64,000 nt of DNA from the IMG/VR virus record IMGVR_UViG_3300031857_000136; one strand, given 5' to 3'. Position 1 is the first letter of the stretch. Each line of letters opens with the position of its first letter. Positions 22,701-36,159 of this stretch are shown here, piece by piece. The notes under the pieces were generated by a model that was not told the DNA's origin, made no database searches, and worked only from the letters and a program-made list of their open reading frames with translations. The position numbers were made by a program, and so were the translations under genes. This DNA comes from a virus.

Positions 22701-24179
22701 GTCTGCTGTGTTTCTAGACTTCTCTCGTTGTTCTGCAAATGTACCTTTAGCTTGCATGATGGCTCCAGATAATCCACCAATCAATACATTCTCTATACCT
22801 TCATCTGTAGTTAGTGTTTCTATAAATCCCTCAGAAAGGCTATCAAGGAAGCTAGTAGGCTCATTGTTATCTTTCTTATTGTAATAATTCTGTACACCTT
22901 TACCAATAGCAAACTGAGCACCTTCTTCAAATGCTTCAGACGCAGAGAATGTATATGGTCTAATTTTATTAAGTGTACCAAGAATTTTATTAGCACGAGA
23001 AGGTTTAGCTATATACTTACCACCATCTTCAATAATATCTCTTGTTTCTCTTGCAAGACCATTCAATACAGATTTCTCCCCTTTGTATGTAGAGCCAAGT
23101 ATTTTTGGAAACTGAATATAGTTAGTAGCTGTTAATAAACCAACATTTAATAAGAAAGCAGAATTACCCACTTCTGAAGCTCTTACATTAATATCTTCTA
23201 ATGCTTGAGCATCAGGATATACACCATTGTTTGCAGCTACATACTCATCAATCAATTGATTTCTCTTTTCGTTAAGAGTTTGCAATGCTTCAAATGCAGC
23301 CTCACCAGTAGTAGAAAGACCAGCTACAACAGCTCTTCCTCCTGTATTCAATGCGTTATATGAAGTGATGAATCTGTCAGATAGAGATTTCACTTTACCA
23401 AATGTATCAGCCACCTTATTAGCAGAAGCAAGTCCTGCTTCTGTAGCAGCTAACACTTCAGCTTGTTTACCAATAGATACAAGACGAGAGATACCAGGAA
23501 GTGCACTGAGTGCTTTTATGCCAGCACTGTATACACCTCCTGAAAGAGCTGCACCAGCAGCAAAACCAAGATTCTTTATAATACCATTCCAAAGAAAGTT
23601 AGCAGTGAATAACTTATCTGGAGAATACCATCTAGCATTCTTCTCAACATCTGTGTAGTAGTTAGGAAGTAAGTTATTATCTAATTCTTTATTTAAGTTA
23701 TCTAATCCTCTATTTAAATCGTTATCATAGAATGAAGAGAAATTACCTGTAGATATCCAGTTACCTACACCGTTAACAAGACCCACTGTACCCTGTAAGA
23801 ATGTAGTGCCTGTAAGAGCAAGTCCTTTACCAACACTATTAACCATCTTCTCAGTCCAACCTTGTCCTTGAGCATATGCATCCTCATTATTGTAATCACC
23901 AGGTACAAATGCATTGAATCTAGGATTAGTAAGTTCTGATATAGAACGAGGAATAGAACCACCCTGTTGTCCTTTGTTAGATGCTCTAATAGAAGCATCT
24001 AATGCATCAAGTGCAGACACAGATGCATCACCACCAACACCTGGAGTGCTAAGTCCTCTAAATGGTATGTTAGGAAGAGGGTCTGGAATTCTAGTAGGTG
24101 TGTAATCACCAAACTGTTCTTCTAGAGCCATTCTATCAAGTAGAGGAAGTTCAGGAGAGTTTAATGGATTTTCTGCCAT
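10785..24179 (-). CDS. Giant 4464-aa protein. It is a candidate virion-packaged RNA polymerase / cargo fusion of crAss-like type.
   Basis: A single uninterrupted ORF. The motif GSDFDIDKLSVY (DFDID encoded at nt 14277..14291) resembles the universal RNAP beta-prime NADFDGD metal-binding loop. TVYHEVFHAVW at nt 18360..18374 is a zincin HExxH motif. Start and stop are coupled to the neighbouring gene through a TAATG overlap at 24179. Confidence 0.85.
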   Translation of the reverse strand: MAENPLNSPELPLLDRMALEEQFGDYTPTRIPDPLPNIPFRGLSTPGVGGDASVSALDALDASIRASNKGQQGGSIPRSISELTNPRFNAFVPGDYNNEDAYAQGQGWTEKMVNSVGKGLALTGTTFLQGTVGLVNGVGNWISTGNFSSFYDNDLNRGLDNLNKELDNNLLPNYYTDVEKNARWYSPDKLFTANFLWNGIIKNLGFAAGAALSGGVYSAGIKALSALPGISRLVSIGKQAEVLAATEAGLASANKVADTFGKVKSLSDRFITSYNALNTGGRAVVAGLSTTGEAAFEALQTLNEKRNQLIDEYVAANNGVYPDAQALEDINVRASEVGNSAFLLNVGLLTATNYIQFPKILGSTYKGEKSVLNGLARETRDIIEDGGKYIAKPSRANKILGTLNKIRPYTFSASEAFEEGAQFAIGKGVQNYYNKKDNNEPTSFLDSLSEGFIETLTTDEGIENVLIGGLSGAIMQAKGTFAEQREKSRNTADAIQKFNKYRLSDFTRETIDSVNRGTVLQQEREQFLRKGDVLNSKDREADFVNNYLSPRIKYGRFDLVQADINDYRFLASTEEGFAQLVAEGKALSTDTAPAFLDRLSKFEQTANNTLSLYESLNLRYGGQVDDNGNLLYTPQVIDKMVYAASKVADYDVRIPALTSKLTAAGINVNQVMKDIIDGNVDSFNDAIDNINSITDLTDDQKEDIAESLEDVAEMAIRRDSYLKEYNEIKKEPVKFQEFIPTDIEETETPKGETIKVKTKTGEKELEVGTEYFVGKKVDYDKDGLEVPVEVSELTILGENEDGTIKIKDNKGQIRDVSKEVLEDYKLGKVADVRANKTAKYFYNHRNEIFEYNFGEKFGGKKQGRLEYDKGKLFFVYKDNKGKIKRKALKNEFFVAQEGYTEARIKKVGEIENEEQRIAREEFTSAEEIAIQKETLAKNRDNRLAIITELATEYSERLEKIEKKLAAKKEQLEKINEDLEEYKGLEKKDLSGNTIVRPFNKLLSRALRSISSLNATKEVLEKEIAELTADRDELEFNLSYFEDFKQNLDELPENSGDFLKELKNQVNIIEELRNKTQDNIKSLNNLIQKIEDSIVEFTKLLKESFEKFDKDYPSYIKDQFEKIINEGGALADIPTLKNFIADYVLLADTKKEISVSKNRVDKLSDQINDLYKDFLDIQQEYDAKKLILDKFQAVADTYQAMKAEENKMMENEQLLTEALGTADTGVQTVEFNKEYEPTAKKSDEIIPRGTMGIVRGKPHQIRANTFGFNLNRFDNRKNIRGVYVTSKNEDQLVPGLTDMLRMDEAGLIDEDINKDEIIALVMVQEDENGDIQLVGVDGQPVPDGTNPLESAIFQVFPDGDLKWGAEFNNESMFRKDTPQEVRDAVTKQYKEWRNSVIGNPDLSERHEIEASFGRVENVTDADGKIIYDTRTSVQDANLITTDELEGRQLITIPTLPTEGSNIAIVEQGTVTFRVPVGTVLLETPNGLVKLQNKQHSTKEAETIYEAILQLAKNMLDPQVGIKDAKSERLLNWLKSTVYWGLPENQNKERKPAGYNSVFFEKDSETGKLMLTLSGKGKDFVFTPTALEENKDAIVLMLSNMYNNINNHFAKQLNEPYEEILSISESGEITSRIWKNYQSYLLSNQTPDGKVRSGEELPLSTTVRPTVNNEDINRTNIYFFTTDTADNFVIPVVEKKKVVAPKVLTPGAPTTAAVLQPDTSALAQAQGTARTEPITTATPVTYKLDGNTPQTYTSPEGKKIMFTASANTTAENANTEIKILKGGDLDEVVAKIKAAGKDPGEILKKTVFNAIAPTLNEMKAMEADLTVTIPDDVEEVVVADAESKMGKPISQSVMDAVNRKISGLDNEALRVVIEKELKAFVPENWSQVETWLKSNFPNVPVYRVKNIIQATNGRQAWGMFKDGAIYIYENAEVGTVYHEVFHAVWRMFSDPTEQKAVLDEMKSRSGKFYDRASMNDVSYSEATEDQLEEKLAEEFRDYVQFKKIPAKPSKGRPYILKLFADMVTAIKEFFLGPQSNSKVEKMFSQIGQGYYKSHVPFQNSLAFAKEGVIDIEDAFADSDAALSLKDINDKERSDIIQHMTYLTLVDLIKTDESLFNIEKRNKKQVYAKLKDQVLETISQKIRGAQSLVSDGEFTQEEVNPLISNTLQLMQNVEDQWSTITERHEEYLKSYAIEFDENDNINLKDENNSGRETYQDATKIDNFKKSNSAVKILLATIPEVDDNGKLVPSSIGGAKLLPVSKTYISMMNNLHTSASVEDMLGRLRQMAVSDPNYRTLYRRITKRDWKDGGVDLSKVDTQHALQLISSIWNTFKKQNPDVRNVFILENGEVVVGEANLSSAAQQLRSEYINSIVFKAKEGKGFFTYDNVEKVFKGDPAKLKGVNLNSVTAMVDFLNRMGIPFTVSDVNKMTPEQYKVFKAAVAGIKESISRTEKIATFSGKALGMSGRLLELGLVKSAVSNPEFSSTYFNVSGERTQSFIGTNAASDLSDFLSKLERFNKESVGGTRYSYLLTDSFAKGSNLLSRMFTDAGTRKKDTEDLFKIGYVSGLVNEEKGKRKESSKLTYKDRLVQELNLNLSGYYLNLVPGDASIEWMIKMGNAISTASVGRGMGDINAIFKEYFKAELELVRENRSVAKGRKSDEMRFFKGILGDTLHSDVLAAKGTPEEVYNNFENKINGKLADFIQKDMIKLKQSLTQYGILKEGMLGFDFENINLPKNIGEKEVDKQLMALTANYMIANIEMHKLLYSDPYQYEDELKRIKSFNSPRQAIINNSPKMNAALSNVWNRGFSAGDIGFTKFTQDYFRSATHADVIGIIDLPNYTSFKETDGSGIINMKANRQFRIRAGNWNSEEERQYRYDVAWEKRDKNLPLLKEEVAILAAGNPGIQSAYTPLKPIVSGSKLAKNGTASSYNDVVLDKFALYPLSYRIMKEIDKDANAIKLYDKMQREDIDYVVFTSGRKVGAESPHETYKDGAFNDDPYKGVINVPFSIMSIQAEVPSKEDNLVTRGSQITKLITLDFMEAGVPVDFFSGQPFANRYKAWYKLSDAEKVEKSELYKEIKNNQDILEALIEEGYKNTLDKLGIKETITKDKDGNIVSRKFEITDFSKAAQTLRDEILKREVNDNISDALAGFLQGKVVLEATPAYQQVRNIIYSIADKQFISPKISGGMKVQIPSTMLESGVRNVKDGLYESDVLDFYVKDGKRVAEVMLGRWFDSPLSDEELLEYLNTTEEGQKILAGVGYRIPTQKQNSVDVIVIKKFLPKEFGDSVVVPAALVQKVGSDFDIDKLSVYLKNVYIKDGKPRLIPYFGIGEEAVNKFKELFDKGEFLTDEEMKELDRYIAEEQLLLQDIAEESKGGKLMSAIFGKLFSEEELTQEFTKGIPSKDQIISRLYKKSLENEYIQSMENLITHPKNYDNLIKPNSAESLKKLSEEIAEKTVGQSFDYKNVDNMLDRTFMSRLRHAFVTGKYAIGIAAVNQTNHSLNQRQPIYIDKSRLSRVSEEDRFWLGNADIRFDKYNAIEVDGKMVPTLSMITNKAGEYISDIIGMFIDGYVDISKGPWIMELGATPNVASTWLFLIKAGVPVKTVAYFMNQPIIRDYLRNIESAGYSWLFMDTFVKDMSEVYQQDMTEAELQERLAAFRIPGETVLKNNVGKTTADMTNSEKMDQYLMLKEFLKYAKMGEQMFHVTQGSNYDTSSFNDPYLVFKKQMQQIKAQNTIISSVDTLLANSFIGKLAETVNSVRDAFAQIIKSDSPKVRSVIQKVLLPYVETSDRDFVKLAQKAVNDLFDWAVQTDQKLNEMVKDILVNDGGVGREVAMFVNEVKSKGREHPLYGNHVIDIIEGIPSIRAAAGGPNNAKLNMGENKVYDQNNVIYAFRELRDYLKGENNPLYERIKLLAVLQSGLSPSPISFTNLLPYEDFEDVYNKTLSKLEGMSNLEDFYKLGVFQRNNWNNDDVVPYLKAALITTGAGRMHYNPSMKFLPDAVKQAMATNDIPPILTRSKMNREANSDYIVYTWEKQEDVLTKEELDKAIADRNVYKAIAAKKAEMRRAADYSYINKALFKKVYDNYNTALEHTAYDGKKYFVYKAINAWGDSFRANEFWATDHKSVLENGFMKVEDVDNNVIISKFLDGSKVKTKPTPSGMITADVKTEYPGKPEFNKLPSKSAKQNMTYAGIGSRQTPPAVLKQMTEVARELERKGYTLNTGVTFRGNKEGADKAFDDGTNKKNLFSPENQGSRPREQAIAKEMHPNPNALSPGALKLMARNTNQVFGDNLNKPVDFVLFYAKETKGVRPEGGTGQAVEMARLKGIPTINMADANWREQLNNALSSTPTEVKGIAMTSPNVEKIKAGKKTTTTRSQREFENIGIPVGQSATVNFGGQNFTVTNRGLLSIQEAGGKEAMLKSEGYATVNDLLYQQTKDWMNGKGKLYVYDISPTTENDNLNFKKGPCK

Positions 24180-26776
24180 TATAAAGGATTTTTAGAATTG
24201 TTTTGTAATTTTTGTAATTCAGGTTTAGTTGCACTCTTTTTATTGTTGATCAGCTCATATATAGACGCATCAGTTAATCCCTGTAGTAAAGGAGCCACCT
24301 CACCTTCAGAAACCAATCTTGGGTAAGGAATATCTTCATAAAGTTTTTTTGTATTAGGATCATAAATATTCAATCTTAATGAATATGTTACACCACCATC
24401 TCCAGAAACAATGTTTCCGCTCATACCATAAGACTTTACATTAGAGAAAGTTGTAGGACCAAGAGCTGCATTAGATATAGTTGTTGGACCATTTTCAGGA
24501 CTAGTAGATAGGTATGGACTTCCTTCTGTACTGTACTTTCTCATTATATTTTGATAAGGACGGAAAGCTCGTACAGCTGGAGAAGCTTCAAATCTGTTTC
24601 CGAATACTGCAGTCTTTTGTTCAGGAGTCATTCTAAATGTAGTAGTACCTGCTGCTCCAGTTGCTGTCACCTCGTACATAGCAGGAGAAAACTCCGTACC
24701 TTCTACAACTTTTATAACACCTTGAGGATTTCCTGATTGAGCAATCTTTCTTAATATTTCTTTATCTAAATTAGGAGAGTTGGCTATTTTACCCTTTTGA
24801 GATTCAGCAAGGTTTGCCACTGATGTAAATATATTAGCAAGACTTTCTTGTTGTGCCTTGGTAGTAGTAGGGATAGTATATTCCATACCTTGGAACCCTG
24901 TCATTCTTCTCTTTATCTCATTACCTACCCACTCTTCTCTTTTTTTAAGAGTTTCTCCGTAAGGAATGTTAACTGTTTTTGCATAGTTTGCTAAGTTGTT
25001 AAGCAATACTCCATCAGCACTCGTCATATTTTTACCACCTTTTGTATAAGCATTATAAAGTACAAGTTCTTTTGGACTTAGCTCTTCTTTAGCTTTACTA
25101 TCTAACCACACTGATTCATAAACAGGACCTGCTGCACTAGTTCTTGTTTTACTTGTTGTTTGTCCTTGATAAGAATTAATCTTTGCATTGAAATCTACAA
25201 GCTCTCTTGGTGTGTACACATATGTGTTTCCTTTTCCATCACTATATGTTAGATTTTTAGCATCCTTTGGAATGTTTTTATAAACATTTCCATAAATTCT
25301 ATCAGCCTCAGTATTGATCTTACTCACCATTACTTCATTCTCTATAGCAGTGCTTCTTGCTCCTTCTGTTTTATTAAAGTGTTGTGCAATTAATGGGTCT
25401 ACACCATTAGGAGATTTTAACCATGCAACTCTTTGTTGATCAAGCCATGCTTTATCTTTTCCTTGAGACATTACAAAAGCAGCATCTTGTACATCAACTA
25501 GGCTTTTAATAGCGTTTGTTTGTGCTATCACTTTATCAATAGCAATTTTAGGAACATCGTTGGGATCAACAGAGGTTGGAAAACCACCATATCCTTGTAG
25601 TGCTAGTTCTTGCAATCTAATCTTCTCATCCTCTTTCTTCATAGTGTCTGTGTGGAATTTTTCTTTTTGTTCAAATTCCATTATGAACTTCTTCCACTCT
25701 TGAGCCTTATTCTCTCTCCATTGTTGTACTTGAACAAAAGGACTATCTAGATAGGTCTGAGAAGTTTCTGTATATGAAAAAGCTTTTGAGAAACCACTCA
25801 TAAAGTTAGTTGTAAATAATCTAGCTTTTGCAGACTCAACATCACCCTCCTCAAAAGTTTTTGAAACACTATTATATTCTTCTTGAATGTTTTTTAACAT
25901 TTTGTCAAGCTCTCCAATCTTCTGATCAATCTTTGTCTTTTCTACAGCAGAAGGAGTAGAAGATTTTGCATTCTCTAAGATGGTTTTTTGTTGAGCAAAC
26001 GCATCATATTTACTCTTGTAAGAAGCACTTACAGAGTTTGCAAATTCTTGATTATCAGTATTTGAATAATTGTATCTACCATCCACTGACATTTGTTCCC
26101 AATCATCAGGAGAAAGTCCTACAAGAAGAGCTTGTTGAATCTTCTCTGGAGAAATACCTTTACTCATTAAACGGGTCATTGCGTCTTTCATTACAAGATT
26201 ACCATTAGCATCAATGTCAAAAGCATCATCTCTGATGGAGCTATCTCCAGTGAGTGCTTTGATTAGCTCTGTGGCATTCTTTTTGTAATTAGTATATGGT
26301 TTGTAGGAAGCATCAAATCTTGAATCTAATTCAGTACTATTTAACCACTCATTAGCTTTAGTCTTAAACTCCCAAGTTCTTGAAGCTGAACCCTTTCCCT
26401 CTTTTACAAGAGCATTCATATCCTCAATACCCTTCCTATATGCTTTTGTAGAAGAAAGAGCATTTACAACATTAGGGTCTCTTACAATCTGACTAGCCAT
26501 CCCTCCTACAGAGTTGACAAGTTGGAAGTTGGAAAAATCACCAGCAGCTACACTTTTAAGGCTGCTTCCAAGTTGATTCAGTTTAGACTGCAAATATAAC
26601 TTATCCACATCTCTAATAACATCTAGTCCAGCAATGTTGTCTATGTTAGTTTGAATCTTTTGGAGACCCTCATCGTAACGCTTCTGTTTCTCCATGCCAA
26701 CCTGAACCATTGCCTCAATAGGCAATTGTTGTACGTAGGGATTAAATTTTGATATTTGGTCGGTAAATGATGCCAT
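24179..26776 (-). CDS. 865-aa large hypothetical virion protein. It contains the GDGGVTY motif shared with its downstream neighbours.
   Basis: ORF track. Its stop overlaps the start of the 4464-aa gene (TAATG). A promoter-like TACATTTG -7 box lies upstream. Confidence 0.8.
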   Translation of the reverse strand: MASFTDQISKFNPYVQQLPIEAMVQVGMEKQKRYDEGLQKIQTNIDNIAGLDVIRDVDKLYLQSKLNQLGSSLKSVAAGDFSNFQLVNSVGGMASQIVRDPNVVNALSSTKAYRKGIEDMNALVKEGKGSASRTWEFKTKANEWLNSTELDSRFDASYKPYTNYKKNATELIKALTGDSSIRDDAFDIDANGNLVMKDAMTRLMSKGISPEKIQQALLVGLSPDDWEQMSVDGRYNYSNTDNQEFANSVSASYKSKYDAFAQQKTILENAKSSTPSAVEKTKIDQKIGELDKMLKNIQEEYNSVSKTFEEGDVESAKARLFTTNFMSGFSKAFSYTETSQTYLDSPFVQVQQWRENKAQEWKKFIMEFEQKEKFHTDTMKKEDEKIRLQELALQGYGGFPTSVDPNDVPKIAIDKVIAQTNAIKSLVDVQDAAFVMSQGKDKAWLDQQRVAWLKSPNGVDPLIAQHFNKTEGARSTAIENEVMVSKINTEADRIYGNVYKNIPKDAKNLTYSDGKGNTYVYTPRELVDFNAKINSYQGQTTSKTRTSAAGPVYESVWLDSKAKEELSPKELVLYNAYTKGGKNMTSADGVLLNNLANYAKTVNIPYGETLKKREEWVGNEIKRRMTGFQGMEYTIPTTTKAQQESLANIFTSVANLAESQKGKIANSPNLDKEILRKIAQSGNPQGVIKVVEGTEFSPAMYEVTATGAAGTTTFRMTPEQKTAVFGNRFEASPAVRAFRPYQNIMRKYSTEGSPYLSTSPENGPTTISNAALGPTTFSNVKSYGMSGNIVSGDGGVTYSLRLNIYDPNTKKLYEDIPYPRLVSEGEVAPLLQGLTDASIYELINNKKSATKPELQKLQNNSKNPL

Positions 26777-26790
26777 GATATTTGGATTAG

Positions 26791-26822
26791 CAAATGTAAT
26801 TTAAATTATTATATATACCAAG
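26791..26822 (-). promoter_or_regulatory. Possible Bacteroidetes-type promoter for the 865-aa gene.
   Basis: On the minus strand TACATTTG (matching the TAnnTTTG -7 consensus) lies 11 nt upstream of the ATG. The -33 element is only TTGG, one mismatch to TTTG. Confidence 0.35.
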
Positions 26823-26862
26823 AGTTCTAATGATTTTTGTTAATCTGGTATAATTGAATTAG

Positions 26863-29800
26863 TTAGAGATTTTTAATAGCTTTTACAATTGAACCATTCT
26901 TTGCAGTCTTTTGATAGCCAATAAGAGTTCCAGACGGGTCATATAAAGGAAGACTTTTACTGGTAGCAGTTGCTCCTGGTTGTTGATTTGCTATATTTGG
27001 AATAGTGAATCGAGCTAGAGGATTCATATTAATAGCTCTACCTCTATTGTCATATCTATAGTTGTAAAGGTTCTCGTATATACCTGCTGTTCTATTCTCT
27101 AACAGGTTCTTGCTGTATTTATCAGCAATAGAATTAAGAGCTTCTTGTGTTTGAGCCTTAGTGTTAGACAAAGCTTTTGACTGTCTAACCATTTGTTCGT
27201 CATAAGTACCCATGTTCTTAAGTTGAGCATCATTTAGAATGTTTCTATTAGCCTCATAAACACGAGCTTTTTCAGCTTGGTTCAATCTAGTTTGTTGTCC
27301 TAGGACAGCAGAGTTTGCTGCATATTTCTGAGCATTCAATTGAGCTAGGGCAGCTGGGTTATATCCTACTAACCTCTGTGTAGCATTGTAGTCTGCTTGG
27401 TTAGCATTCAATTGATCCTGTAGAGAGATATCAAATGGGGTGCTTAACATAGGTTTATAGCTCTGTGCAAACACTGGTTCTACCTGATTATTAGCCAAAG
27501 CAAACATCTCTCCAGCTAATTGCGTAGGGTCTAATTCAAGCTGATTGCTAGGTCTTACATAAGGAAGAACTGTATTGTATGCAGTTTGCCAATCAAATCC
27601 ATCTTCTTCATCTCCATCATATTCTGTAATAATAGGTTGTTTTTTAATTGTAGAAGTTACTGTAACAGGATTTAATGGATTGTACTTGAAAGTATCTTCT
27701 GTGGTAGGTGTACGTTTAGTAGTTACCACTTCATCTATTGTATCATTCATTATATCATGAAAAACACCTGGTAGTGAATCTGTAGCTAAAGCTTTAATTT
27801 TTTCAACCTTTTGTTCAAATGTCATAGCTTTTGCTAATTCTTTTTTAGCTGCCTCAGCACCTTCACCTGTATAGTTTTCTATACGTTCAACAATTTCTTT
27901 AGCGGTCTCTGGATCAGAGAAAGCTTTTTCAACTTTAGGTTTCCATTCCTTTTCATATCTTCCAGGAGTGAAAAGAGGGTTTCCAGCTTGACCTAATGGA
28001 TTATAACTAAGTGGGTACTTTTCACTACCTTTAACTTTAAATTTACTTATCTTCTTTCCATCTTGAGCTGTTTCTGAGTCAGGTTGAGAGTTTCCAATCT
28101 GAACCCTATTAGCTTTAACGTCCTTGTTAAATTTAGCTACATCCTTATATCCAAACTCCTCAGCAGTGTCATGGATAGCTTGTTGTAATTTACCAAGCTT
28201 TTGTGTTTCAGCGGCAATATCTTTTAACTTCATATTGCCACCAAGAATCTGTGCTTGTAATGAATTCATTTCTAAGTTATCAAATGGTGAAAGCAGTTCT
28301 AAGTCTTTTAACTTATTTGTAGCTTTATCAATCATTTTATTTTGTTTGTTTGTATTTTTAGTTAGCTCTGTACCATAGGTTTTAAACTTCTTACCCTTAG
28401 CATCCTTTTTAAGATCTGCTAAAGCGTAGTTAGGTATATCAAGGGCACCAAGTACCATTAGGTTCTTTTCCCCTGTACCACCATCTTCAAGTTTAACCAT
28501 AGGTTCACCTCTTTCTACTTCTACAGGATTATCACCGTAAGTGATACCAATACCTGTGTTACCCTTACCATCACTTTGAGAATGATAGTTTCCTCTAGGC
28601 ATGTATGTTACACCACCATCTGGTAGATAAGGATTTTGAGAAGCAGCTTCTGTATATCCACCCCAATGTGTTTGAAGCTCACCACCCATTTGGAAGTCAG
28701 GTCTTTCTGTAGACATAGCTTCTGCACTAGGAGAAGTGTATTCTTTTAAGTGACCACCAGCTCTTAACATCTCTGCATCATGAGGAGGTTTTAATAAGTC
28801 TTTCATTTTATGTTCACCAAAGCTAGCAATCACCTGTGGCTGCCAATCATTACTTACCCATCCACCATCTTCTTTCATGTTAAAATACTTAAGTGGTATA
28901 GGATTGAATAACCAGTTTTTTACACCTTCCCATCCACCCATCTTAGGTACTAATTCTGAATGAACACGTTCTAAACTACCTATTCCTTTAGAAGGAACTC
29001 CAAACTGATTTTGAAATGCCTGACCAAAAGTGTGACGACTTCCTTTATCCATCAATTTAATTGCTAGAGCATACTTCTGTTGAGGGGTATATCCAGATGT
29101 ATCATCTGCTACAAATACATTAGGATTATTTTGCAAGTACTGATCTCTAATAGCATTCAATTGTTTTACCATCTTTTTGTCTAAAGGAGTATCATCAAAT
29201 TCATGTGTAAGTTCTGTCTGACCAGCTAGTGCAGCAGCTGCCTCTTTTGAAGCTTGTTTCTCATCTCTAGTAGCTTGTCTTTCTAATCCTTTCATTTGTC
29301 TAGCAGCCTCTGCGTTCATTCTTGCATTTTCTTTATTGATACCACGTTGAATACCACAGAACTGACCTACAGATCTATCTGCAATTGTACCAGCTTGAGC
29401 TTTTGGATATTCAACATATCCTCCATCTTCCATGAATGCACTATTTTGACCTTGTATTTGTTGAGCTCCTTGTTGTAAAGCAGACATTCCTAAATTTTGG
29501 AAACCTTGTTGATTTCTTTTTCTAGTACCAGAGTTAATTATTGCAGTGGTTAAATCTGTTGCAATGTTTACACCTGGCATTATTGTATTGTTAAATGTAT
29601 CTAAGAATCCACCAGCTTGAAACTGTTTAATGTTAGTATCACGCAACGGTGTATATTCAAGATTTGTATAGATTGTATTTGGAGCAAATGTATTTTGAAT
29701 CTCAGTTGGATTACCTCCAACTTCACCACCATCTTCTAGCTGTAGATAGTCAGTTCCTTCACCTTTAGGTTTATTCATTTGATAAGGATCAAATCTCATA

Positions 29801-30663
29801 TCTTCAGGTCTAACATATCTACGTTTACTGATTTCTCCTCTTGTACCAGCAGCTTCTTTTGAAAGTCTACTTAAGTCCACAAACTGATTTGATTTCTCTC
29901 TAGCTCTAATTGCACCTCTTATCTTTTGAAAGTTACCAATTAATTGTTGAGCACCTGGAGCATAACCAGCTATGGTGTCTAATAAACCACCACCTGGACC
30001 ATATCCAAGTCCTTGACCTCCACCACTTGGATTATATGAAAAACCTTGTTGTATTGAAGCATTGCTAGGATTAGCCCCTGGTTGTAATCGATACATACCA
30101 GCACCAGGATTAGCAGGACTATTAGGAGCACCAGCAGGAATACCACTTCCCATAAGAGGTTGGTTAGGGCCCCATAGATTAGAACCACCAGCTGGTATAC
30201 CAGAACCTGTACCTCCTTGTAACTTAGGTACATTACCACCTTTCTCCATAGCCATCATTGCTACATTAGCTATCTTACCTATGTTTTCTACATCCTTATT
30301 AATATTACTATTATTGTTAGCAGAATTAGCAGCCATCTGTTGTTGAGCTTCAGTGCTAGCTATTCTATTTCTCATTTGATTAGTCATACCTGTGGTCTGG
30401 TAATCTGCAGCATCATAGATGTCAGCAAAAGCAACATTGCCAACAGCATCTTGCTCACCACCTACATATGTACCCACCTCAGCCTGTGGAGGATTAGCAA
30501 AGTCAGTTAATTGTGTTAACTGTTTAGCAACCATAGACTTACCCATGGCAGCTTTCTTAAATGCTTTACCATGAGCTTTCATGAATGCTTCTTCTGTAGG
30601 ATACTTCTTATAGAATTCCTTTTCAGACTTTACTTTTGCGATCTTAAGGATTTGATCTTTCAT
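26863..30663 (-). CDS. 1266-aa large virion/cargo protein. The N-terminal part contains a G/P/Q/N-rich low-complexity segment (GSGIPAG x2).
   Basis: ORF track. Five [ED]DGG motifs are present (LEDGGEV, MEDGGYV, KEDGGWV, PDGGVTYM, LEDGGTG). Confidence 0.85.
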   Translation of the reverse strand: MKDQILKIAKVKSEKEFYKKYPTEEAFMKAHGKAFKKAAMGKSMVAKQLTQLTDFANPPQAEVGTYVGGEQDAVGNVAFADIYDAADYQTTGMTNQMRNRIASTEAQQQMAANSANNNSNINKDVENIGKIANVAMMAMEKGGNVPKLQGGTGSGIPAGGSNLWGPNQPLMGSGIPAGAPNSPANPGAGMYRLQPGANPSNASIQQGFSYNPSGGGQGLGYGPGGGLLDTIAGYAPGAQQLIGNFQKIRGAIRAREKSNQFVDLSRLSKEAAGTRGEISKRRYVRPEDMRFDPYQMNKPKGEGTDYLQLEDGGEVGGNPTEIQNTFAPNTIYTNLEYTPLRDTNIKQFQAGGFLDTFNNTIMPGVNIATDLTTAIINSGTRKRNQQGFQNLGMSALQQGAQQIQGQNSAFMEDGGYVEYPKAQAGTIADRSVGQFCGIQRGINKENARMNAEAARQMKGLERQATRDEKQASKEAAAALAGQTELTHEFDDTPLDKKMVKQLNAIRDQYLQNNPNVFVADDTSGYTPQQKYALAIKLMDKGSRHTFGQAFQNQFGVPSKGIGSLERVHSELVPKMGGWEGVKNWLFNPIPLKYFNMKEDGGWVSNDWQPQVIASFGEHKMKDLLKPPHDAEMLRAGGHLKEYTSPSAEAMSTERPDFQMGGELQTHWGGYTEAASQNPYLPDGGVTYMPRGNYHSQSDGKGNTGIGITYGDNPVEVERGEPMVKLEDGGTGEKNLMVLGALDIPNYALADLKKDAKGKKFKTYGTELTKNTNKQNKMIDKATNKLKDLELLSPFDNLEMNSLQAQILGGNMKLKDIAAETQKLGKLQQAIHDTAEEFGYKDVAKFNKDVKANRVQIGNSQPDSETAQDGKKISKFKVKGSEKYPLSYNPLGQAGNPLFTPGRYEKEWKPKVEKAFSDPETAKEIVERIENYTGEGAEAAKKELAKAMTFEQKVEKIKALATDSLPGVFHDIMNDTIDEVVTTKRTPTTEDTFKYNPLNPVTVTSTIKKQPIITEYDGDEEDGFDWQTAYNTVLPYVRPSNQLELDPTQLAGEMFALANNQVEPVFAQSYKPMLSTPFDISLQDQLNANQADYNATQRLVGYNPAALAQLNAQKYAANSAVLGQQTRLNQAEKARVYEANRNILNDAQLKNMGTYDEQMVRQSKALSNTKAQTQEALNSIADKYSKNLLENRTAGIYENLYNYRYDNRGRAINMNPLARFTIPNIANQQPGATATSKSLPLYDPSGTLIGYQKTAKNGSIVKAIKNL

Positions 30664-30681
30664 ATTGAACGTTTGTGTGTT

Positions 30682-33600
30682 TTATTTATATTTGTTTAAC
30701 CAACCACCATCTTTAAATGCTTTAATTTCCCCTTTACCACTCTTAAACCTTTCAGGTATATCAAACTCATACCAGGTATTACCTTTACTATCTGTTACTA
30801 TTTTAACTTCTTGCCCAAATAGTTTTTTAATGAGTTTAGGTTGTTCTGTATATTTTTTAAGAATGGTTACAGCATTTGGCTCATATATCTTACCTTTTAA
30901 CTTTCCACTTAAAACATCATTAATTAATTTTCTTTCATGCTCAGTTGATTTGTCAGTAAGTTCTTTAGTAAAGTTTGGATTTTGTGCTAGTTCCTCATTA
31001 TATCTTCTTATAATCTCTTCAGATTCAACACCTTCATAACCCTGTACCTTTGCTGCAGTTTCTGATGTGGGTACTCTTACTTTATTTACATCACCTCGTT
31101 TACCAGCATAATCCACTAGCTCTTGTAAATATCTTTCTTGATGATTTTTATCTAATAATGACTTCTGTTCAAAGTTTTCTACTTCTGCTCTTTTAAGTTT
31201 ACTAGAAGCATTTTCTTCTTTTACAATCTCTGTAAATTTATCAATCTCTTCATCTATTTGACTAATAGTTTCTTTATCTGCTTTATTTATAAGTAGTTCT
31301 TCTTTTTGTTTTTTTAAACTTTCAAGAACGTTATTACGCTGAGTCGCTATGTTTTCCAAACTTTGTAAAGAAAACTCTGCTTCTTCTAAACTTTTAGGCA
31401 TTGATCTATATCTACCTTGAAAAGCATCAGATTGCATTTGTGTCATTGTAAGAACATCTGGTGATTCAGCGTCTCTTATAAAATGAATATGACCAAGAGT
31501 TTCCATGGGATTATCATGAGCATCAGCCCCTCTACCAAATTTATCTTTATTACTTAATCTGATAGTTTGATTTTCTAAAGGAAGATCATTATACTCTTTT
31601 AAGTATATATTTAGATTTGCTTTCAATATATCTAAATAATCGCCTCCTTCACCACGTGCTTCAAATCTACGAATGTCTTCTTTTGCTTCATTTATACGAT
31701 TAAGAATAGCATCTTTATCAGCTTTAGTATATCCTAGGTTATTTATACCATAACTAGAACGATATGTACTAACAACTTCTTTATCTAAAGGAATAAGTTG
31801 ATCTTGTACTGTTTTCCTAAAATCATTATAATCCATCTTCTTAGGTAGATCTTTTCCTAATGCCTTTTTTATAATGCTTGCTTTACTAGCACCACCTGAT
31901 TCTTTTGCTATAATACCTAATGCTTGTTCTACATTTACAAGTCCTGTTTTAGGTTCTACTATCTTACTAATTGGACCTCCTTCTACTGTAGATGATAAAT
32001 GTAATCCTGGAAGTTCTTGTGGTTCCCAAGCTGATTTTACATTAGGTGTAACATCATTCATCATTAAATTAGAAGTGGTTCCTCCTTTTTCAGGTACATT
32101 TTTTAACGGAGTTAATTGTTTGAATGCTGATCCTAAAGCAGGAGAAAATACAGCACCTAAATCAAATGCATCCCCAAGCAATCCTAATGTACCTAATGTG
32201 TTTGCTAGAAATCCATTCCCTTGACCAATACCATAAGGGTTATTTTTAGGATCTCTAATTGCTCTAGATACTCTAACACTTGACATAATAGGAGTCATAT
32301 CTGCAACATTCTCAGCAGCTATCTTACCAGCAGCTTGATTACTTCCTGTTGGTGTGAAAGAACTTAATGTTTGAGCAAGAGGAGACTTACCTTTAGCTTC
32401 ATCCAAGTATGCATTAACAACTTGTTGTTGAGCAATCTCTTTCTGTCTAGGTGTTCTATTATCTTGTTTAACAGTTTCTTGTTTGCCTTTAGCTCTAGCA
32501 ACTGCCTCTGCAAGTATTTGTTGTGGTCTTTTCTGATCAGCTTCAGCTAATGCCTTATTCGTCTCATATGTTTGCTTCGCTATTTTCATTTGAGGAAAGT
32601 AGGATGCTATATCACCTCTGTTTTTATTCTCCTCCTTAAATATAGGATCAAACATAGATTTTCCATACTGAGCTGTATCAAATTTACTTAACCAGCCACC
32701 ATCTTTGCGTTTGTCAACGTTCAGTCCAAGTTTTTCAATTTCAAGCTTCTTAACCATGTCAATAACTGGATCTATAGTATACTTGTTATAAGTATCTCTT
32801 GTTTCTTTACCTAAAACACTAGCAGCTCCTAGTCCAAGTGTATACTTCTCAGCAAGACTTTGTAAATGTGGAGCCATGGTAGCAAACTGAAACTCGTTAT
32901 TCATCAGCTTCTGTTTGTCAATAGGAACATATCTTGTAGAAAAAGGAAGCCTTCTGTTAAAAGACATACCTGGTTCTGTAAGTGGTATTTCAGAAAGTCT
33001 TCTTCCTGCCTTATCAACCATAAGTACACCATTTCTATCAGGTACCTGAAGTGTAGATAAGTTTGCATCAGGGTTGTTCATATCAAAGGTGGCTTCAAAC
33101 ACACCTGGATAATTTTCAGATGGTTGATTTCTAGCTGCCCAGTTTCCTTCACTAACTATCTGATCTCTGCCCATTCTGAATTTAGAACCACCAGCAGGAC
33201 TTAATGCCTGTCTTTGTATAACATCATCTAGAGAGTTACCAAACTTTCTAAACGTCTGGTTTTTACCAGATAGTTTTCTGCCGTATCCAGGTATAAGATT
33301 TAAAGGACTCATGTCCATTATATCCATCTCTACACCCATTGCTTTTATAGGATCTATTCTCGGTGCTATATCATCTACTAAACCAAGTGGATTGAATCCT
33401 GACTTCTCATAAGGAGGAGAAACATAAGAAGGAGAAATAGATTTTGGTTTAGTCATTAGACTACGTACACCACTAAGGCCAGATGCCACACCTTCCATTA
33501 CTAACATAGGTTCTACTATATTCTCCATAGCTTTAGCTGCCACCTCAGAACTAGCTGCTCTATTTAATAGTTTAGCTTGTTCTGCTCTGTATGCATCTTT

Positions 33601-36159
33601 AGCTGCATTCATTCTCTGTTGGTCTCCAGGTTTTGGAGTGTATTGAGAAACAGTTTCTTGAGCATTTCTAGCTTTCTGATTCTTAATGTCCTTTTCAAGA
33701 GCTGCCATTGTTTCTAGATTAGATCTAGATAAAGGACCTCCAGATTGATACTTACTTAACCAGCCACCACTCTTCATCATTGGATACTCTGTAACATACT
33801 CACCATCAAAGTTATAGTCTTCTCCAGGATACATCATCTGTTGGTCCCCTGTATCAGATATTCCTAGTACGGGATAATCTACCCCTTCCATTGTTATGTC
33901 TGTTCCTGGTATTATAGTTACTTCTCCTGGATGTGCCCATTGTCCCATTGGGTCTACAATAGCACCCTCTTGAGCAATACTGTTAGGTTTAAAATCTAAA
34001 CCTTCTTGGTAGAACTTCATCTCTTTACCATTCTGTGCAGAAGCTTTTGTCTTCTTAGCATACTTACCATTGCTAGGAGCACTACCAGCTACACGTGCGT
34101 ACGTGAATCCTACAGCACCTGGTAAGCTACCACCCATAGCTTTTTTAGGAACAAACTTTGGATTCTTAGGATCAAATGGTAGATAATCATTAGTATTCCA
34201 AATGCGTCCATACCAAGTATCATTATAGTTGCTATTAGGAACTCCAGGGGCTGGATTGTTTATATTTTTATAATACCAATCTCTACCTTTGTTCATTAAT
34301 GTTCTTCTCTCGTTTTCAGAAAGCTTACCAATAGTACTAGCATATTCTTGATCAAATGAATATGGTGCATTCTTTCTACCAGACCATTTACCATCAGCAT
34401 CTAATTTAGATTGATCGTATTGTCTATAATATTCTTGTAAAGCATATGCTCTAGGATCTTTAGTTATTTTATTGTTATTCTCATCCCATCCAGCATTAAA
34501 GATAAAGTCCATAGCTTCACCAGCTTCCATTGCAGTTGCACCAGGCATTATCTTTTTTACTTCTGGATATACTTTATCCATTAGCATATTCATATACTTA
34601 GGATCACTATAGTATGGTAAAGGAGCACCGCCAGGTCCACCTCTTAATTGTTCATATTGTAATATCTTATTAGCTTGATGTCTAACACTGTCAGTAGTTG
34701 ATTTACTACCTCCATATTGCATTGTTCCACCCATAGCCATATCACCATCCTTTTCCTGTGCACGCATAGCCTTACGAATCTTCTCTGGGTCTGTTTCAGG
34801 AGTTCCATCTAAACGAAGAACTTTACGCTCTTTTAGTTTTGGTGTACTATATATAATTCTTTTACTACCACCAGTTGTATTACCTGTACCTAAGAAGTCT
34901 TCTTCACTAATCTCTATTCCATTTAATATGTATTTCTTACTTCCTGTAGGAGTATATGGTGCTGGTTTAGTTTCTTCAGATTTTTTAATTACTGGGGTCT
35001 TTTTCTTTTCTAGTTCAGTTTTTGATTCCTCAGTAGATGTAGACGGTTCTACCTTTTCATCAATTAAACCACTTTCTTTTCCATATCTTTTTAATCTAGT
35101 AGCTCTTTCTTTAGAAGTGAGCATACTTACAGGTTTAACTAATATAGGGTCATAAGAATATATAGAAACATTATCAGCAAATAAAGGATCGTCTGTTTTA
35201 CTATTTACATAATAATACTGCATTGTAGGAGTGATTCTATTATCAAATAGCTGCATTGGAGATTTTGTGTCTAATGCTCCAATTCTAGTTTCTCTTTGAA
35301 GATATCTATTAGCATCAAGTTTTTTGTAATATGAATCTACTGGGATAGTCTTAATTTCATATTTTTTACCTGTGTCTGTAGGCACTAAAATACCACTAGA
35401 TTTGTTTAATTTAAGGAAATCTGCTAGTGCCTCTCTATTATAACGTTTATAATGTTCTTTCTTTTTATAATCTATAGTACTATAATTTTTATATCTTTTA
35501 TCATTATAATAATCAAGTACTTTCTTAGAATTATTATAAAGAGCAAGACTATCTGCCATTGTAGGGATAGACTTACCTACCTGAGCTACATATCCACCAT
35601 CTTCCATATCTCCCCATCTCTTAAGTGGTGTAGGAATAGGTTTTCCTTTTTCTACATATGGATGTCTAATTTCTTGTTCCCATTTTTCAGCCTCTTGCCA
35701 TGTTTTAAATGGACCACCAAGATGTTCACCTGTCTTTCTATATTCAGCAACAGGATCTTTTAAATCCTTACCACCTTTAAACATAGGTATTAAATAAGCT
35801 GGTTCTCCGTCTACTCCTCCTATAGATGTAGCTAGTTCGGTACTAGGCTCAGCATAAGGAATTCTGTAACGTGAAGGTAGTTTGTAACTAATAGGTTGTA
35901 AGAAACCACCACTCTGAAACTGTCCACCCCATGCAGGAGAATAGTTTCTACCTGTTGTATCATTACCCATTCCTACAAAACCAGGACCTACAGATACATC
36001 CACCTCATTAGGATTAGGCTTCTTACCATAGTTATCTAACCAACCACCATCCTTCATGGTGTTATCTTTCCCACACATATGGCAAACATACATATCTTTC
36101 TTGCTGGAATCTGATTTATTCCAGGAATGTCCACATGTGCATTTAATACCTTTAGCCAT
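30682..36159 (-). CDS. 1825-aa large virion/cargo protein with an N-terminal zinc-ribbon-like CTCGHSWN...CHMCG.
   Basis: ORF track. Five KDGGW-type motifs are present (MKDGGWL, MEDGGYV, KSGGWLSKY, KDGGWLSKF, FKDGGWLNKY). An internal PGAVGFTYARVAGS (nt 34084-34110) is nearly identical to the major capsid protein N-terminus PGLTGFTYARVAS. Confidence 0.85.
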   Translation of the reverse strand: MAKGIKCTCGHSWNKSDSSKKDMYVCHMCGKDNTMKDGGWLDNYGKKPNPNEVDVSVGPGFVGMGNDTTGRNYSPAWGGQFQSGGFLQPISYKLPSRYRIPYAEPSTELATSIGGVDGEPAYLIPMFKGGKDLKDPVAEYRKTGEHLGGPFKTWQEAEKWEQEIRHPYVEKGKPIPTPLKRWGDMEDGGYVAQVGKSIPTMADSLALYNNSKKVLDYYNDKRYKNYSTIDYKKKEHYKRYNREALADFLKLNKSSGILVPTDTGKKYEIKTIPVDSYYKKLDANRYLQRETRIGALDTKSPMQLFDNRITPTMQYYYVNSKTDDPLFADNVSIYSYDPILVKPVSMLTSKERATRLKRYGKESGLIDEKVEPSTSTEESKTELEKKKTPVIKKSEETKPAPYTPTGSKKYILNGIEISEEDFLGTGNTTGGSKRIIYSTPKLKERKVLRLDGTPETDPEKIRKAMRAQEKDGDMAMGGTMQYGGSKSTTDSVRHQANKILQYEQLRGGPGGAPLPYYSDPKYMNMLMDKVYPEVKKIMPGATAMEAGEAMDFIFNAGWDENNNKITKDPRAYALQEYYRQYDQSKLDADGKWSGRKNAPYSFDQEYASTIGKLSENERRTLMNKGRDWYYKNINNPAPGVPNSNYNDTWYGRIWNTNDYLPFDPKNPKFVPKKAMGGSLPGAVGFTYARVAGSAPSNGKYAKKTKASAQNGKEMKFYQEGLDFKPNSIAQEGAIVDPMGQWAHPGEVTIIPGTDITMEGVDYPVLGISDTGDQQMMYPGEDYNFDGEYVTEYPMMKSGGWLSKYQSGGPLSRSNLETMAALEKDIKNQKARNAQETVSQYTPKPGDQQRMNAAKDAYRAEQAKLLNRAASSEVAAKAMENIVEPMLVMEGVASGLSGVRSLMTKPKSISPSYVSPPYEKSGFNPLGLVDDIAPRIDPIKAMGVEMDIMDMSPLNLIPGYGRKLSGKNQTFRKFGNSLDDVIQRQALSPAGGSKFRMGRDQIVSEGNWAARNQPSENYPGVFEATFDMNNPDANLSTLQVPDRNGVLMVDKAGRRLSEIPLTEPGMSFNRRLPFSTRYVPIDKQKLMNNEFQFATMAPHLQSLAEKYTLGLGAASVLGKETRDTYNKYTIDPVIDMVKKLEIEKLGLNVDKRKDGGWLSKFDTAQYGKSMFDPIFKEENKNRGDIASYFPQMKIAKQTYETNKALAEADQKRPQQILAEAVARAKGKQETVKQDNRTPRQKEIAQQQVVNAYLDEAKGKSPLAQTLSSFTPTGSNQAAGKIAAENVADMTPIMSSVRVSRAIRDPKNNPYGIGQGNGFLANTLGTLGLLGDAFDLGAVFSPALGSAFKQLTPLKNVPEKGGTTSNLMMNDVTPNVKSAWEPQELPGLHLSSTVEGGPISKIVEPKTGLVNVEQALGIIAKESGGASKASIIKKALGKDLPKKMDYNDFRKTVQDQLIPLDKEVVSTYRSSYGINNLGYTKADKDAILNRINEAKEDIRRFEARGEGGDYLDILKANLNIYLKEYNDLPLENQTIRLSNKDKFGRGADAHDNPMETLGHIHFIRDAESPDVLTMTQMQSDAFQGRYRSMPKSLEEAEFSLQSLENIATQRNNVLESLKKQKEELLINKADKETISQIDEEIDKFTEIVKEENASSKLKRAEVENFEQKSLLDKNHQERYLQELVDYAGKRGDVNKVRVPTSETAAKVQGYEGVESEEIIRRYNEELAQNPNFTKELTDKSTEHERKLINDVLSGKLKGKIYEPNAVTILKKYTEQPKLIKKLFGQEVKIVTDSKGNTWYEFDIPERFKSGKGEIKAFKDGGWLNKYK

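Follow-up and report, generated by a model that had tools for sequence, protein, structure and literature searches.

A GG-WLxK[YF] peptide at the chain ends and module junctions of a mosaic crAss-like phage protein, a candidate virion docking tag

The 64,000-nucleotide stretch of viral DNA analyzed here (IMG/VR record IMGVR_UViG_3300031857_000136; hereafter the window) is the virion arm of a distant crAss-like phage, with all genes on the minus strand, and encodes a mosaic protein of 1825 amino acids (aa), p1825, which is probably a cargo protein carried in the virion. We find that p1825 bears, at its chain ends and at the joints between its modules, an exposed and portable pentapeptide, WLxK[YF], which is conserved at the protein level and which together with a preceding Gly-Gly forms an element, GG-W-L-x-K-[YF], restricted to the family of this protein. 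The family to which p1825 belongs is very large and consists of probable cargo or ejection proteins, built from cassettes (polyvalent-type), in environmental crAss-like phages. By analogy with known targeting peptides, we tentatively propose that the motif is a multivalent virion docking or loading tag on a polyvalent cargo protein, a reading to which we give close to an even chance. Polyvalent proteins and crassvirus cargo proteins are already known; what is new is a conserved peptide that punctuates and terminates such a cargo protein and doubles as an exchange junction, and no published description of the motif peptide or of Crassvirales cargo motifs was found in the searchable literature. 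The gene and the copies of the motif in it are located as follows.

30682..36159, minus strand: gene of p1825 (1825 aa), a mosaic, probable cargo protein; directly downstream of the muzzle-position genes and upstream of the gene of p1266
36028..36057, minus strand: motif copy 1, MKDGGWLDNY, aa 35-44; in a DNA direct-repeat family
33736..33780, minus strand: motif copy 2, MMKSGGWLSKYQSGG, aa 794-808; WLSKY with GG on both sides; 61 ends of BLAST high-scoring segment pairs (HSPs) at aa 790-809
32680..32709, minus strand: motif copy 3, RKDGGWLSKF, aa 1151-1160; 28 HSP starts at aa 1150; site of the crossover in the relative P0004
30685..30717, minus strand: motif copy 4, FKDGGWLNKYK followed by the stop codon, aa 1815-1825; extreme C-terminal putative tag

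In p1825, [KE]DGG[WYV] is observed 4 times against 0.013 expected and W[LIV]x[KNQ][YF] 4 times against 0.044 expected, counts that none of 3000 residue shuffles reached in either case. The excess extends to a sample of 120 homologous proteins (169 thousand aa), in which GGWL has 269 copies against ~1 expected, with the site consensus [MF/K]-[KEQ]-[NDES]-G-G-W-L-[DSN]-K-[YF], and WLx[KNQ][YF] has 313 copies against 2.3 expected. GG precedes 245 of these 313 copies, whereas 36 stand at the extreme N-terminus without it (for example, MAKWLDKYEQGG and MKGWLDKYNDGG); 100 are located within 3 residues of the C-terminus, and a second GG follows within 6 residues downstream in 99. The unit is therefore best written as GG-WLxKY-xx-GG, the leading GG being dispensable at the N-terminus and the trailing GG at the C-terminus, and its typical long form is [KQ]-[ND]-G-G-W-L-x-K-Y-x-x-G-G. 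In a 46-sequence mosaic alignment (A2), few columns are nearly invariant, and those of G, G, W, L, K and Y in the terminal copy are among them.

A second sample, broader and independent of the first, was obtained with phmmer by searching the G domain of p1825 (aa 730-795) together with the motif against 1.84 billion cluster representatives, of which 3,559 clusters (50% identity) match at E<=0.001. Among the 150 representatives listed, 137 were newly retrieved, with a mutual identity of at most ~50%; 130 of these 137 carry the motif, at the C-terminal end in 124 and at the N-terminal start in 60, and ~90% of the diverse family members terminate 0-3 residues past it.

The element is also specific. 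A back-translated motif pattern picked up 102 stretches in IMG/VR, and all 96 of the 96 motif-bearing open reading frames (ORFs) there are related to the p1825 family outside the motif as well, each locus having one such ORF; thus, the motif is specific to one gene per genome in the clade. The same result speaks against two other arrangements, namely the occurrence of the motif in other phage protein families and the presence of modules as separate adjacent tagged genes, as no IMG/VR locus has two motif-bearing ORFs. Within the window, p1825 is the sole protein with WLxKY. A scan of GTDB gave 42 stretches, 19 of them with an in-frame K[DN]GGWLxK[YF] in an ORF of at least 60 aa; of these 19 ORFs only one belongs to the p1825 family and the others are unrelated (for example, a Microbacterium family), so that host proteins were rejected as carriers of the family motif. 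As a separate observation, the nonamer K-D-G-G-W-L-x-K-Y is found in unrelated bacterial families of Microbacterium and of Firmicutes metagenome-assembled genomes (KKQKDGGWLVKYRTT; N-terminal KDGGWLMKYAGL), where it is probably a beta-hairpin.

A preliminary description of this DNA had assigned p1825 and two neighbors of 1266 aa (p1266) and 865 aa (p865) to one [KE]DGG[WYV] motif family. The strings that it quoted are all present in the three minus-strand ORFs, and it placed the p1825 motif correctly at both termini and between modules; conservation in orthologs, which it had set as the test of the idea, is borne out for p1825 by the GGWL and WLx[KNQ][YF] counts above. The implied enrichment holds for p1825 and p1266 and not for p865. 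The single family dissolves, with WLxKY specific to p1825, a half-motif only in p1266 and a chance occurrence in p865, and the motif had been centered on the wrong residues, its conserved core being the W-L-x-K-[YF] after the GG and not [KE]DGG. The roles of the motif DNA as a recombination junction and of p1266 as a homologue of the cargo protein C1 lie beyond that description.

Homologues match p1825 piecewise, with high identity over small stretches, and BLAST breakpoints divide it into modules A (aa 1-44), B (42-87), C (80-189), D (183-480), E (475-673), F (674-733), G (708-807), H (796-1160), I (1152-1355) and J (1336-1825), which are permuted, deleted and inserted among the 120 homologues. 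As many as 57% of the 813 internal HSP endpoints fall within 10 aa of marked GG junctions, against 10% expected, and most of the remaining endpoints fall at aa 700-740 and 1330-1370, where homologues or p1825 itself likewise have GG. The junctions and modules other than the motif copies are listed below.

36058..36159, minus strand: module A, N-terminal CxC...CxxC zinc-ribbon-like segment, aa 1-34; precedes the first motif copy
35896..35919, minus strand: degenerate junction FQSGGFLQ, aa 81-88; B/C boundary; HSP ends cluster at aa 80-99; of the enriched FQxGG class
35587..35607, minus strand: junction MEDGGYV, aa 185-191; C/D boundary; HSP starts and ends cluster at aa 180-199
34708..34740, minus strand: junction MAMGGTMQYGG, aa 474-484; D/E boundary; HSP ends at aa 480
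34120..34140, minus strand: junction AMGGSLP, aa 674-680; opens module F, which is almost invariant; 86 HSPs start at aa 660-679
33775..33972, minus strand: G domain, aa 730-795; small and beta-rich, the most widely conserved module of the family; predicted local distance difference test score (pLDDT) 90-94
32710..33735, minus strand: module H, aa 809-1150; cassette, missing from the near-identical relative P0004
30715..32037, minus strand: J domain, aa 1375-1815; folded alpha/beta terminal module, in ~33 of 120 homologues

The junction AMGGSLP contributes the nearly invariant columns M50, G51, G52 and P55 of alignment A2, and the heptapeptide MEDGGYV at aa 185-191 is identical to aa 411-417 of p1266. 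In homologues, the first motif copy is found at about aa 38 or at the extreme N-terminus, and module A has moved to internal positions in some of them (for example, P0029). The motif is portable in that the same module can be terminal in one phage and internal in another: a module that forms the C-terminus (…NFTNYNKPTK-GGWLDKYN or …GEIKAFKD-GGWLNKYK, each followed by the stop) elsewhere continues into further modules (…GGWLDKYE-DGGTVE… or …GGWLDKYE-EGGVLKQK…). The modules that precede the terminal motif are diverse, and those found in p1825 relatives include ART-PolyVal, ADP-ribosyl exotoxin (ADPrib_exo_Tox), SLT, LysM, Amidase_2, PG_binding, His_Phos and SET. Searches of p1825 against Pfam, PHROG and NCBIfam gave no match, as did the same searches with p1266 and p865; tblastn of p1825 against 50,697 phage records found nothing, nor did phmmer or hmmsearch comparisons of PDB sequences with p1825, a p1266 profile, the 1749-aa protein at the muzzle position (p1749) and a 4464-aa giant (p4464).

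An AlphaFold model of p1825 aa 626-1825, built with 46 aligned sequences, has at least two unrelated folded domains together with helical modules. The G domain is confidently predicted as beta-rich (aa 730-795, pLDDT >90), as is the fold of the 440-aa J domain (pLDDT 77-97). Motif copies 2, 3 and 4 directly adjoin these domains at pLDDT <50, each with a one-turn helix on WLxK, and this placement in low-pLDDT linkers marks the motif as an exposed linear element. The preliminary description would have given up the motif had it been buried in unrelated contexts, an objection that does not apply to the p1825 copies in these linkers. Foldseek searches against the PDB returned no match at E<=0.001 for either the p1825 or the p1266 model.

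As DNA, the motif copies head the list of direct-repeat families in the p1825 gene. Copies 2 and 3 contain an 18-nucleotide (nt) perfect direct repeat encoding GGWLSK, 1,068 nt apart and flanking module H. The relative P0004 is near-identical to the window on both sides, is without the 1,068-nt module H and switches from the flank of copy 2 to that of copy 3 inside GGTGGCTGGTTAAGTAA. As the crossover lies inside the motif repeat, gain or loss of a module by recombination in the motif is directly shown. The nucleotide string itself is not under special constraint. Synonymous codons are near background in 135 distinct copies, with the second Gly encoded by GGA, GGT and GGC at frequencies of.40,.27 and.26 and Lys by AAA and AAG at.72 and.28, the latter equal to background; the only excesses are mild ones of GGT at the first Gly and of TTA at the Leu. 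The codons drift while the peptide remains constant, which argues for selection on the peptide and not on the nucleotide string, and nucleotide conservation as the reason for the motif was rejected in view of these statistics.

The neighboring protein p1266 follows a similar cassette logic with a different signature, and its features are as follows.

26863..30663, minus strand: gene of p1266 (1266 aa), homologue of the crAss001 cargo protein C1 (gp45)
29413..29433, minus strand: junction MEDGGYV, aa 411-417; borders an inserted module on its upstream side; 75 HSPs end at aa 410-419; pLDDT <50
28879..29412, minus strand: inserted helical module, aa 418-595; folded, pLDDT 66-90; in ~17 of 120 homologues
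28855..28878, minus strand: junction MKEDGGWV, aa 596-603; borders the inserted module on its downstream side; 92 HSPs start at aa 590-599; pLDDT <50
28381..28698, minus strand: beta-domain, aa 656-761; pLDDT 71-88; contains FQMGGELQTHWGG, PDGGVTY and LEDGGTG

DGG is observed 5 times in p1266 against 0.58 expected, a count reached by 0 of 3000 residue shuffles, and WLxKY is absent from p1266 and its 120 homologues. Coverage by homologues falls from ~92 to 17 over aa 418-595, and at the insertion point the family consensus has one FMEDGGWVSNDWQ, as do most relatives; the GG of the MKEDGGWV junction is invariant across the family. The inserted module with its flanking DGG sites is thus a cassette like those of p1825. 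The remaining DGG sites differ in context. PDGGVTY and LEDGGTG are predicted as beta-turns within the confident beta-domain, with strands flanking both GG, and LEDGGEV lies in a conserved yet unstructured stretch. In a family-profile comparison with hhalign, aa 656-761 match residues 423-505 of gp45 with a probability of 92.5% and an E of 4.8e-7, and FQMGGELQTHWGG aligns with gp45 AFGGWLNTQGG. Residues 425-552 of gp45 are ordered on the portal wing, with which they interdigitate, in the cryo-electron microscopy structure (PMC10172136; PDB 7QOG chain M). The homology of the beta-domain to this portal-bound segment makes p1266, and not p1825, the C1 ortholog. The p1266 family also has a near-invariant C-terminal tail of its own, KNGSIVKAIKNL (26866-26901, minus strand), which follows a low-confidence stretch and may be a second terminal signal of a different kind. 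In three relatives, p1825 modules C, F and G are joined to a body of the p1266 type; these proteins have no WLxKY, and their C-terminus is the tail KNGSIVKAIKNL.

What p1825 and p1266 have in common is only a looser half-motif, a hydrophobic residue followed by [KEQ]-x-G-G, upstream of the site of WLxKY. M[KEQ][DNSE]GG occurs 121 times in the p1825 family and 148 times in the p1266 family against ~2 expected and, in reverse, 3 and 2 times; [FYM]Q.GG occurs 193 and 145 times against 6 and 10 expected, with 0 and 1 occurrences of its reverse. A general protease-like rule with a hydrophobic residue at P5 was set aside: the enrichment is real, but most terminal WLxKY copies, with K/Q-rich residues before them, do not follow the rule. 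The half-motif is what the [KE]DGG of the preliminary description had picked up in more than one protein. It recurs in cargo-position proteins of Leptolyngbya phage Lbo-JY46 and Cellulophaga phage phi17:2. It was also observed that the G domain is N-terminal in cargo-position proteins of these cultured phages (Lbo-JY46 XAI97386, 11962-13449, and, weakly, phi17:2 gp041, 7920-10607), and that phi17:2 gp041, whose annotation is virion structural protein, contains 14 GG sites, among them several of the types FQxGG, YQNGG or LKSGG, and is without WLxKY. In crAss001, gp45 (5988-8516 of the crAss001 stretch) has 21 GG sites, many of them [FY]-GG-x-L, flanking its two ordered segments; AYGGPL stands just before the ring-bound helix 214-245 and AFGGWLNTQGG starts the portal-bound domain 425-552. 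If such sites were cleaved in gp45, its tail-bound and capsid-bound segments need not share one threaded chain. The p865 occurrence lies outside the feature.

24179-26776, minus strand: gene of p865 (865 aa)
24383..24403, minus strand: GDGGVTY of p865; outside the feature, chance occurrence

The one DGG of p865 (0.17 expected) is common in shuffles (483 of 3000), and the GDGGVTY segment is missing from a close 857-aa homologue and from Lbo-JY46; it is therefore ascribed to chance.

The window has the features of a crass-type virion module, with a Crass-type capsid, rings and a P22-like portal.

57986-60016, minus strand: TerL
55401-57986, minus strand: P22-like portal (Pfam P22_portal, E 6e-15)
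51896-53449, minus strand: Crass-type major capsid protein (Pfam Crass_capsid, E 2e-27)

Ring proteins 1 (42264-43187) and 2 (43669-44394) have clear Pfam matches (CrAss_Ring_1, E 6e-12; CrAss_Ring_2, E 1e-18), and a Ring 3/4-like protein (50038-50769) matches CrAss_Ring_3_4 at E 4.5e-5 and 23.2 bits, under the curated cut-off of 27. The portal is only ~25% identical to Crassvirales portals, which makes the phage of the window a distant relative; its closest cultured relative is Lbo-JY46. The muzzle position is occupied by p1749 and a 288-aa protein, after which come p1825, p1266 and p865 and then, in gene order, the 4464-aa and 1888-aa giants. By synteny with crAss001 (PMC10172136), p1825, p1266 and p865 appear to fill the cargo-protein slot. 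The gene directly downstream of the portal gene (54868-55398, minus strand) encodes a 176-aa SPFH/Band 7 protein (Pfam PF01145, E 5e-27), which is unusual in a head module and may be a scaffold or cage component or a tag receptor.

The modules of p1825, which are folded domains or helical and disordered stretches, are linked via Gly-Gly hinges, with WLxK[YF] at both chain ends and at many of the hinges. We hypothesize that the tag would bind a conserved internal component of the virion, for which the portal wing with its C1 ring, the rings of the tail barrel, the muzzle and the interior of the capsid are candidates, and modules brought in by recombination would be loaded, tethered at intervals and later ejected. 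Internal copies would most simply represent the C-terminal tag of one unit fused to the N-terminal tag of the next. We favor docking because targeting peptides live at termini, because the invariant residues are the W, L, K and Y and not the glycines, because N-terminal copies have no GG, and because short cargo segments of crAss001 bind the portal, rings and muzzle. In that phage, short helical cargo segments have been seen on the tail rings and the muzzle, and also on the portal, with one bound segment left without assignment (PMC10172136). The AFGGWLNTQGG of gp45, which lies within the segment ordered on the portal wing, may serve as a structural precedent. Among the options raised by the preliminary description, that of a packaging signal seems to fit best, given the conservation after the GG, the N-terminal copies without GG and the terminal motif of ~90% of the family.

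Several points weigh against docking. It is argued from architecture and analogy, and the virion location of p1825 comes from synteny only. The similarity of the p1825 motif to the leader of p1266 and gp45 is short and, alone, not significant (hhalign E 0.089), and profile comparison of the G domain with the portal-binding domain of gp45 gives a probability of 0.2%, with no detectable relation. A loading tag is not obviously required at each junction, and many junctions have only a degenerate x-GG-x (AMGGSL, MAMGGTM, SGGFL), which a hinge or a GG protease fits equally. The three fusion proteins, whose want of WLxKY and p1266-type tail fit docking, are closely related to each other and probably reflect one evolutionary event. 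A bolder form of the hypothesis, in which WLxK[YF] is the universal portable loading tag of a very large environmental clade of crAss-like phages, whose tagged modules are tethered, injected and gained by recombination in the tag DNA, appears less likely than not. Here, the tag would be both address label and splice site of a plug-and-play delivery system, the internal copies being the fused tags of once-separate units; as to the size of such a clade, matches to the G domain with the motif number at least 3,500 protein clusters (50% identity).

The main rival to docking is that p1825 is a polyprotein cut after GG (hydrophobic-[KEQ]-x-G-G, followed by W/F/Y) by a phage or host protease, so that single cargo or effector modules would be set free inside the capsid or the host. 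Processing at GG↓X is known for proteases of clan CE and related ones, namely those of adenovirus ((M/L/I)XGG↓X), African swine fever virus pS273R, Ulp/SENP and the coronavirus PLpro (LXGG). In line with it, each module junction is a GG site, including those without WLxKY, with a hydrophobic residue a few positions upstream, in a flexible linker, and the short extension past the C-terminal copy resembles that of ubiquitin-like precursors; the half-motif before the GG has a direction and is in strong excess in the two families, and like sites are found in the cargo-position proteins of phi17:2 and Lbo-JY46 and, as [FY]GGxL, flanking the ordered segments of gp45. Autoproteolytic release of domains has moreover been predicted for polyvalent proteins (Iyer et al. 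2017, PMC5512222), whereas the crAss001 paper (PMC10172136) is silent on cleavage of cargo proteins. However, neither Pfam in 33 scanned window ORFs (all giants, head and tail genes) nor PHROGs in 14 larger proteins revealed a peptidase domain, and so no cognate protease was found in the 64-kb window by Pfam. The hydrophobic residue of p1825 and p1266 occupies P5 instead of P4, and this holds for just some of the sites; prime-side residues (W, L, K, Y) are the most strongly conserved, unlike what is usual for a GG-specific protease. Proteins that start with M-x-x-WLxKY have no GG to cut after (36 of 120 and 60 of 137), and in the ~90% that end 0-3 residues past the motif cleavage would free a hexapeptide only. 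We regard cleavage, which the preliminary description had offered as a processing-site option, as unlikely, yet as a rival to be taken seriously.

The recombination data raise a different possibility, that the motif is a linker for exchange and nothing else, its low-degeneracy coding sequence providing short homology for cassette shuffling and the peptide being a tolerated hinge. The 18-nt perfect repeat around module H, the P0004 crossover exactly within it, the rank of the motif copies among the direct repeats of the gene, the permutation, insertion and deletion of modules at the motif, and its mostly low-degeneracy residues (M, K, D, W, Y) are as such an account predicts. Yet synonymous sites vary near background, the window copies otherwise share just ~15-17 nt, an invariant W-L-x-K-Y is unnecessary for a hinge, and the most conserved copies are the terminal ones (N-terminal without GG, C-terminal with the stop), though there neighboring genes give homology arms; this account is quite unlikely. 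T-even tail-fibre adhesin genes reportedly (in work attributed to Tetart and colleagues, 1998) have His boxes and glycine-rich motifs that delimit variable segments, which recombination swaps. The likeness to p1825 is in the exchange breakpoints within the motif, with a crossover directly seen; p1825 differs in being a cargo protein and not a fibre, in having the motif also at its termini and in a nucleotide sequence that is not specially conserved. Improbable in our view is a motif for host interaction after ejection, which might bind a periplasmic Tol-type protein, a membrane interface or DNA and so position or translocate modules. The colicin TolB box DGSGW, within a Gly-rich disordered domain, is what we take to be a lead in this direction, the likeness being of 4-5 residues. 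Relatives of p1825 do carry peptidoglycan-directed (SLT, Amidase_2, LysM, PG_binding) and toxin-like (ART, SET, His_Phos) modules, which point to action in the host envelope and cytoplasm, the motif lies within disordered Gly-rich linkers, and its W, Y and K are typical of membrane-interface or groove binding; its confinement to one virion gene per genome and its loss in the fusions to a C1-type body indicate instead a role inside the virion. Least probable of all is a role in structure alone, in which a repeated beta-hairpin or turn ([ND]-G-G with a short strand on either side) would nucleate refolding of modules after tail passage without any partner. This hairpin option of the preliminary description finds a place in p1266, where PDGGVTY and LEDGGTG are confidently predicted beta-turns in a folded domain, and it gains from the probable hairpin of K[DN]GGWLxKY in unrelated bacterial proteins and from the hydrophobic residue 3 positions before GG and the aromatic or aliphatic one after, which fit cross-strand pairing. 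It fails for p1825, whose copies are outside any confident fold, with no upstream strand at the N-terminus, no remaining fold partner at the C-terminus and a predicted helical turn, not a strand, on WLxK.

The docking hypothesis places p1825 beside several known systems. Short terminal peptides that follow a Gly-rich linker target unrelated cargo to an HK97-fold shell in encapsulins, through cargo-loading peptides, and in T4, through the targeting of internal proteins; the T4 capsid-targeting sequence is N-terminal and is cut off by the prohead protease. Similarly, the p1825 family has a conserved terminal motif on diverse cargo (at the end of 124 and the start of 60 of the 137 representatives) and a low-confidence linker at the putative tag (GG before 245 of 313 copies, pLDDT <50 at the three modeled ones), but the putative tag is at both termini and internal as well, and hence multivalent. 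The polyvalent proteins of phages and conjugative elements are giant, fast-shuffling multi-module proteins encoded beside virion genes and thought to be delivered with DNA (Iyer, Burroughs, Anand, de Souza, Aravind 2017; PMC5512222). Likewise, the p1825 gene is among virion genes, from the ring and muzzle genes to those of giant virion-type proteins; its 120 homologues are mosaic, with effector or enzymatic modules in varied combinations, and the neighboring 1888-aa protein (p1888) has ART-PolyVal. On the other hand, p1825 itself is without a recognizable Pfam domain, a conserved junction or terminal peptide is undescribed in PMC5512222, where the word 'linker' is absent from the text, and the MPTase peptidase, frequent in that class though not present throughout it, was not found here by Pfam in p1825, p1266, p865, p1749, p4464, p1888 and 27 further ORFs. 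With C1 (gp45) and C2 (gp46) of crAss001, the window shares the neighborhood of rings, muzzle, cargo genes and giant RNA polymerase-associated proteins (Bayfield et al. 2023, PMC10172136), the homology of the p1266 beta-domain to the portal-wing domain of gp45, and the richness of gp45 in [FY]-GG-x-L. Unlike these, p1825 is an additional protein of mosaic build, for which homology to gp45 or gp46 was not detected (best BLASTP E 0.22, against gp45), gene position being all that it shares with gp45, and the crAss001 proteins have neither WLxKY nor terminal copies.

The candidate tag offers a definite target for mutation in asking how crAss-like phages choose, store and arrange their internal cargo of several megadaltons, of which the sole crassvirus structural study resolved a few short bound segments, not all of them assigned (PMC10172136). 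It makes cargo loading in these phages directly testable and is for this reason of moderate to high interest. The P0004 case displays the gain or loss of a polyvalent effector module at nucleotide resolution, and if the tag suffices for loading, it would be a simple tool to package foreign proteins in phage particles.

Other genes of the same arm have features of their own. The 4464-aa giant (10785-24179, minus strand) has a DprA-like DNA-recombination-mediator domain at aa 4182-4344 (PHROG 768, E 1e-41) and otherwise no Pfam or PDB-sequence match. A second polyvalent-type protein, p1888 (5113-10779, minus strand), has its ART-PolyVal ADP-ribosyltransferase domain at aa 67-236 (E 4e-11) and a weak match to PD-(D/E)XK nucleases, and is without WLxKY. 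Among the tail ring genes, a 416-aa protein (44394-45644, minus strand) without a Pfam match corresponds to PHROG 704, 'DNA repair exonuclease' (E 2e-46). Upstream of the terminase, an HU/IHF-like DNA-binding protein is encoded (61151-61501, minus strand; Pfam Bac_DNA_binding, E 3e-8); such a protein is also present in crAss001 (gp42), there within the tail module.

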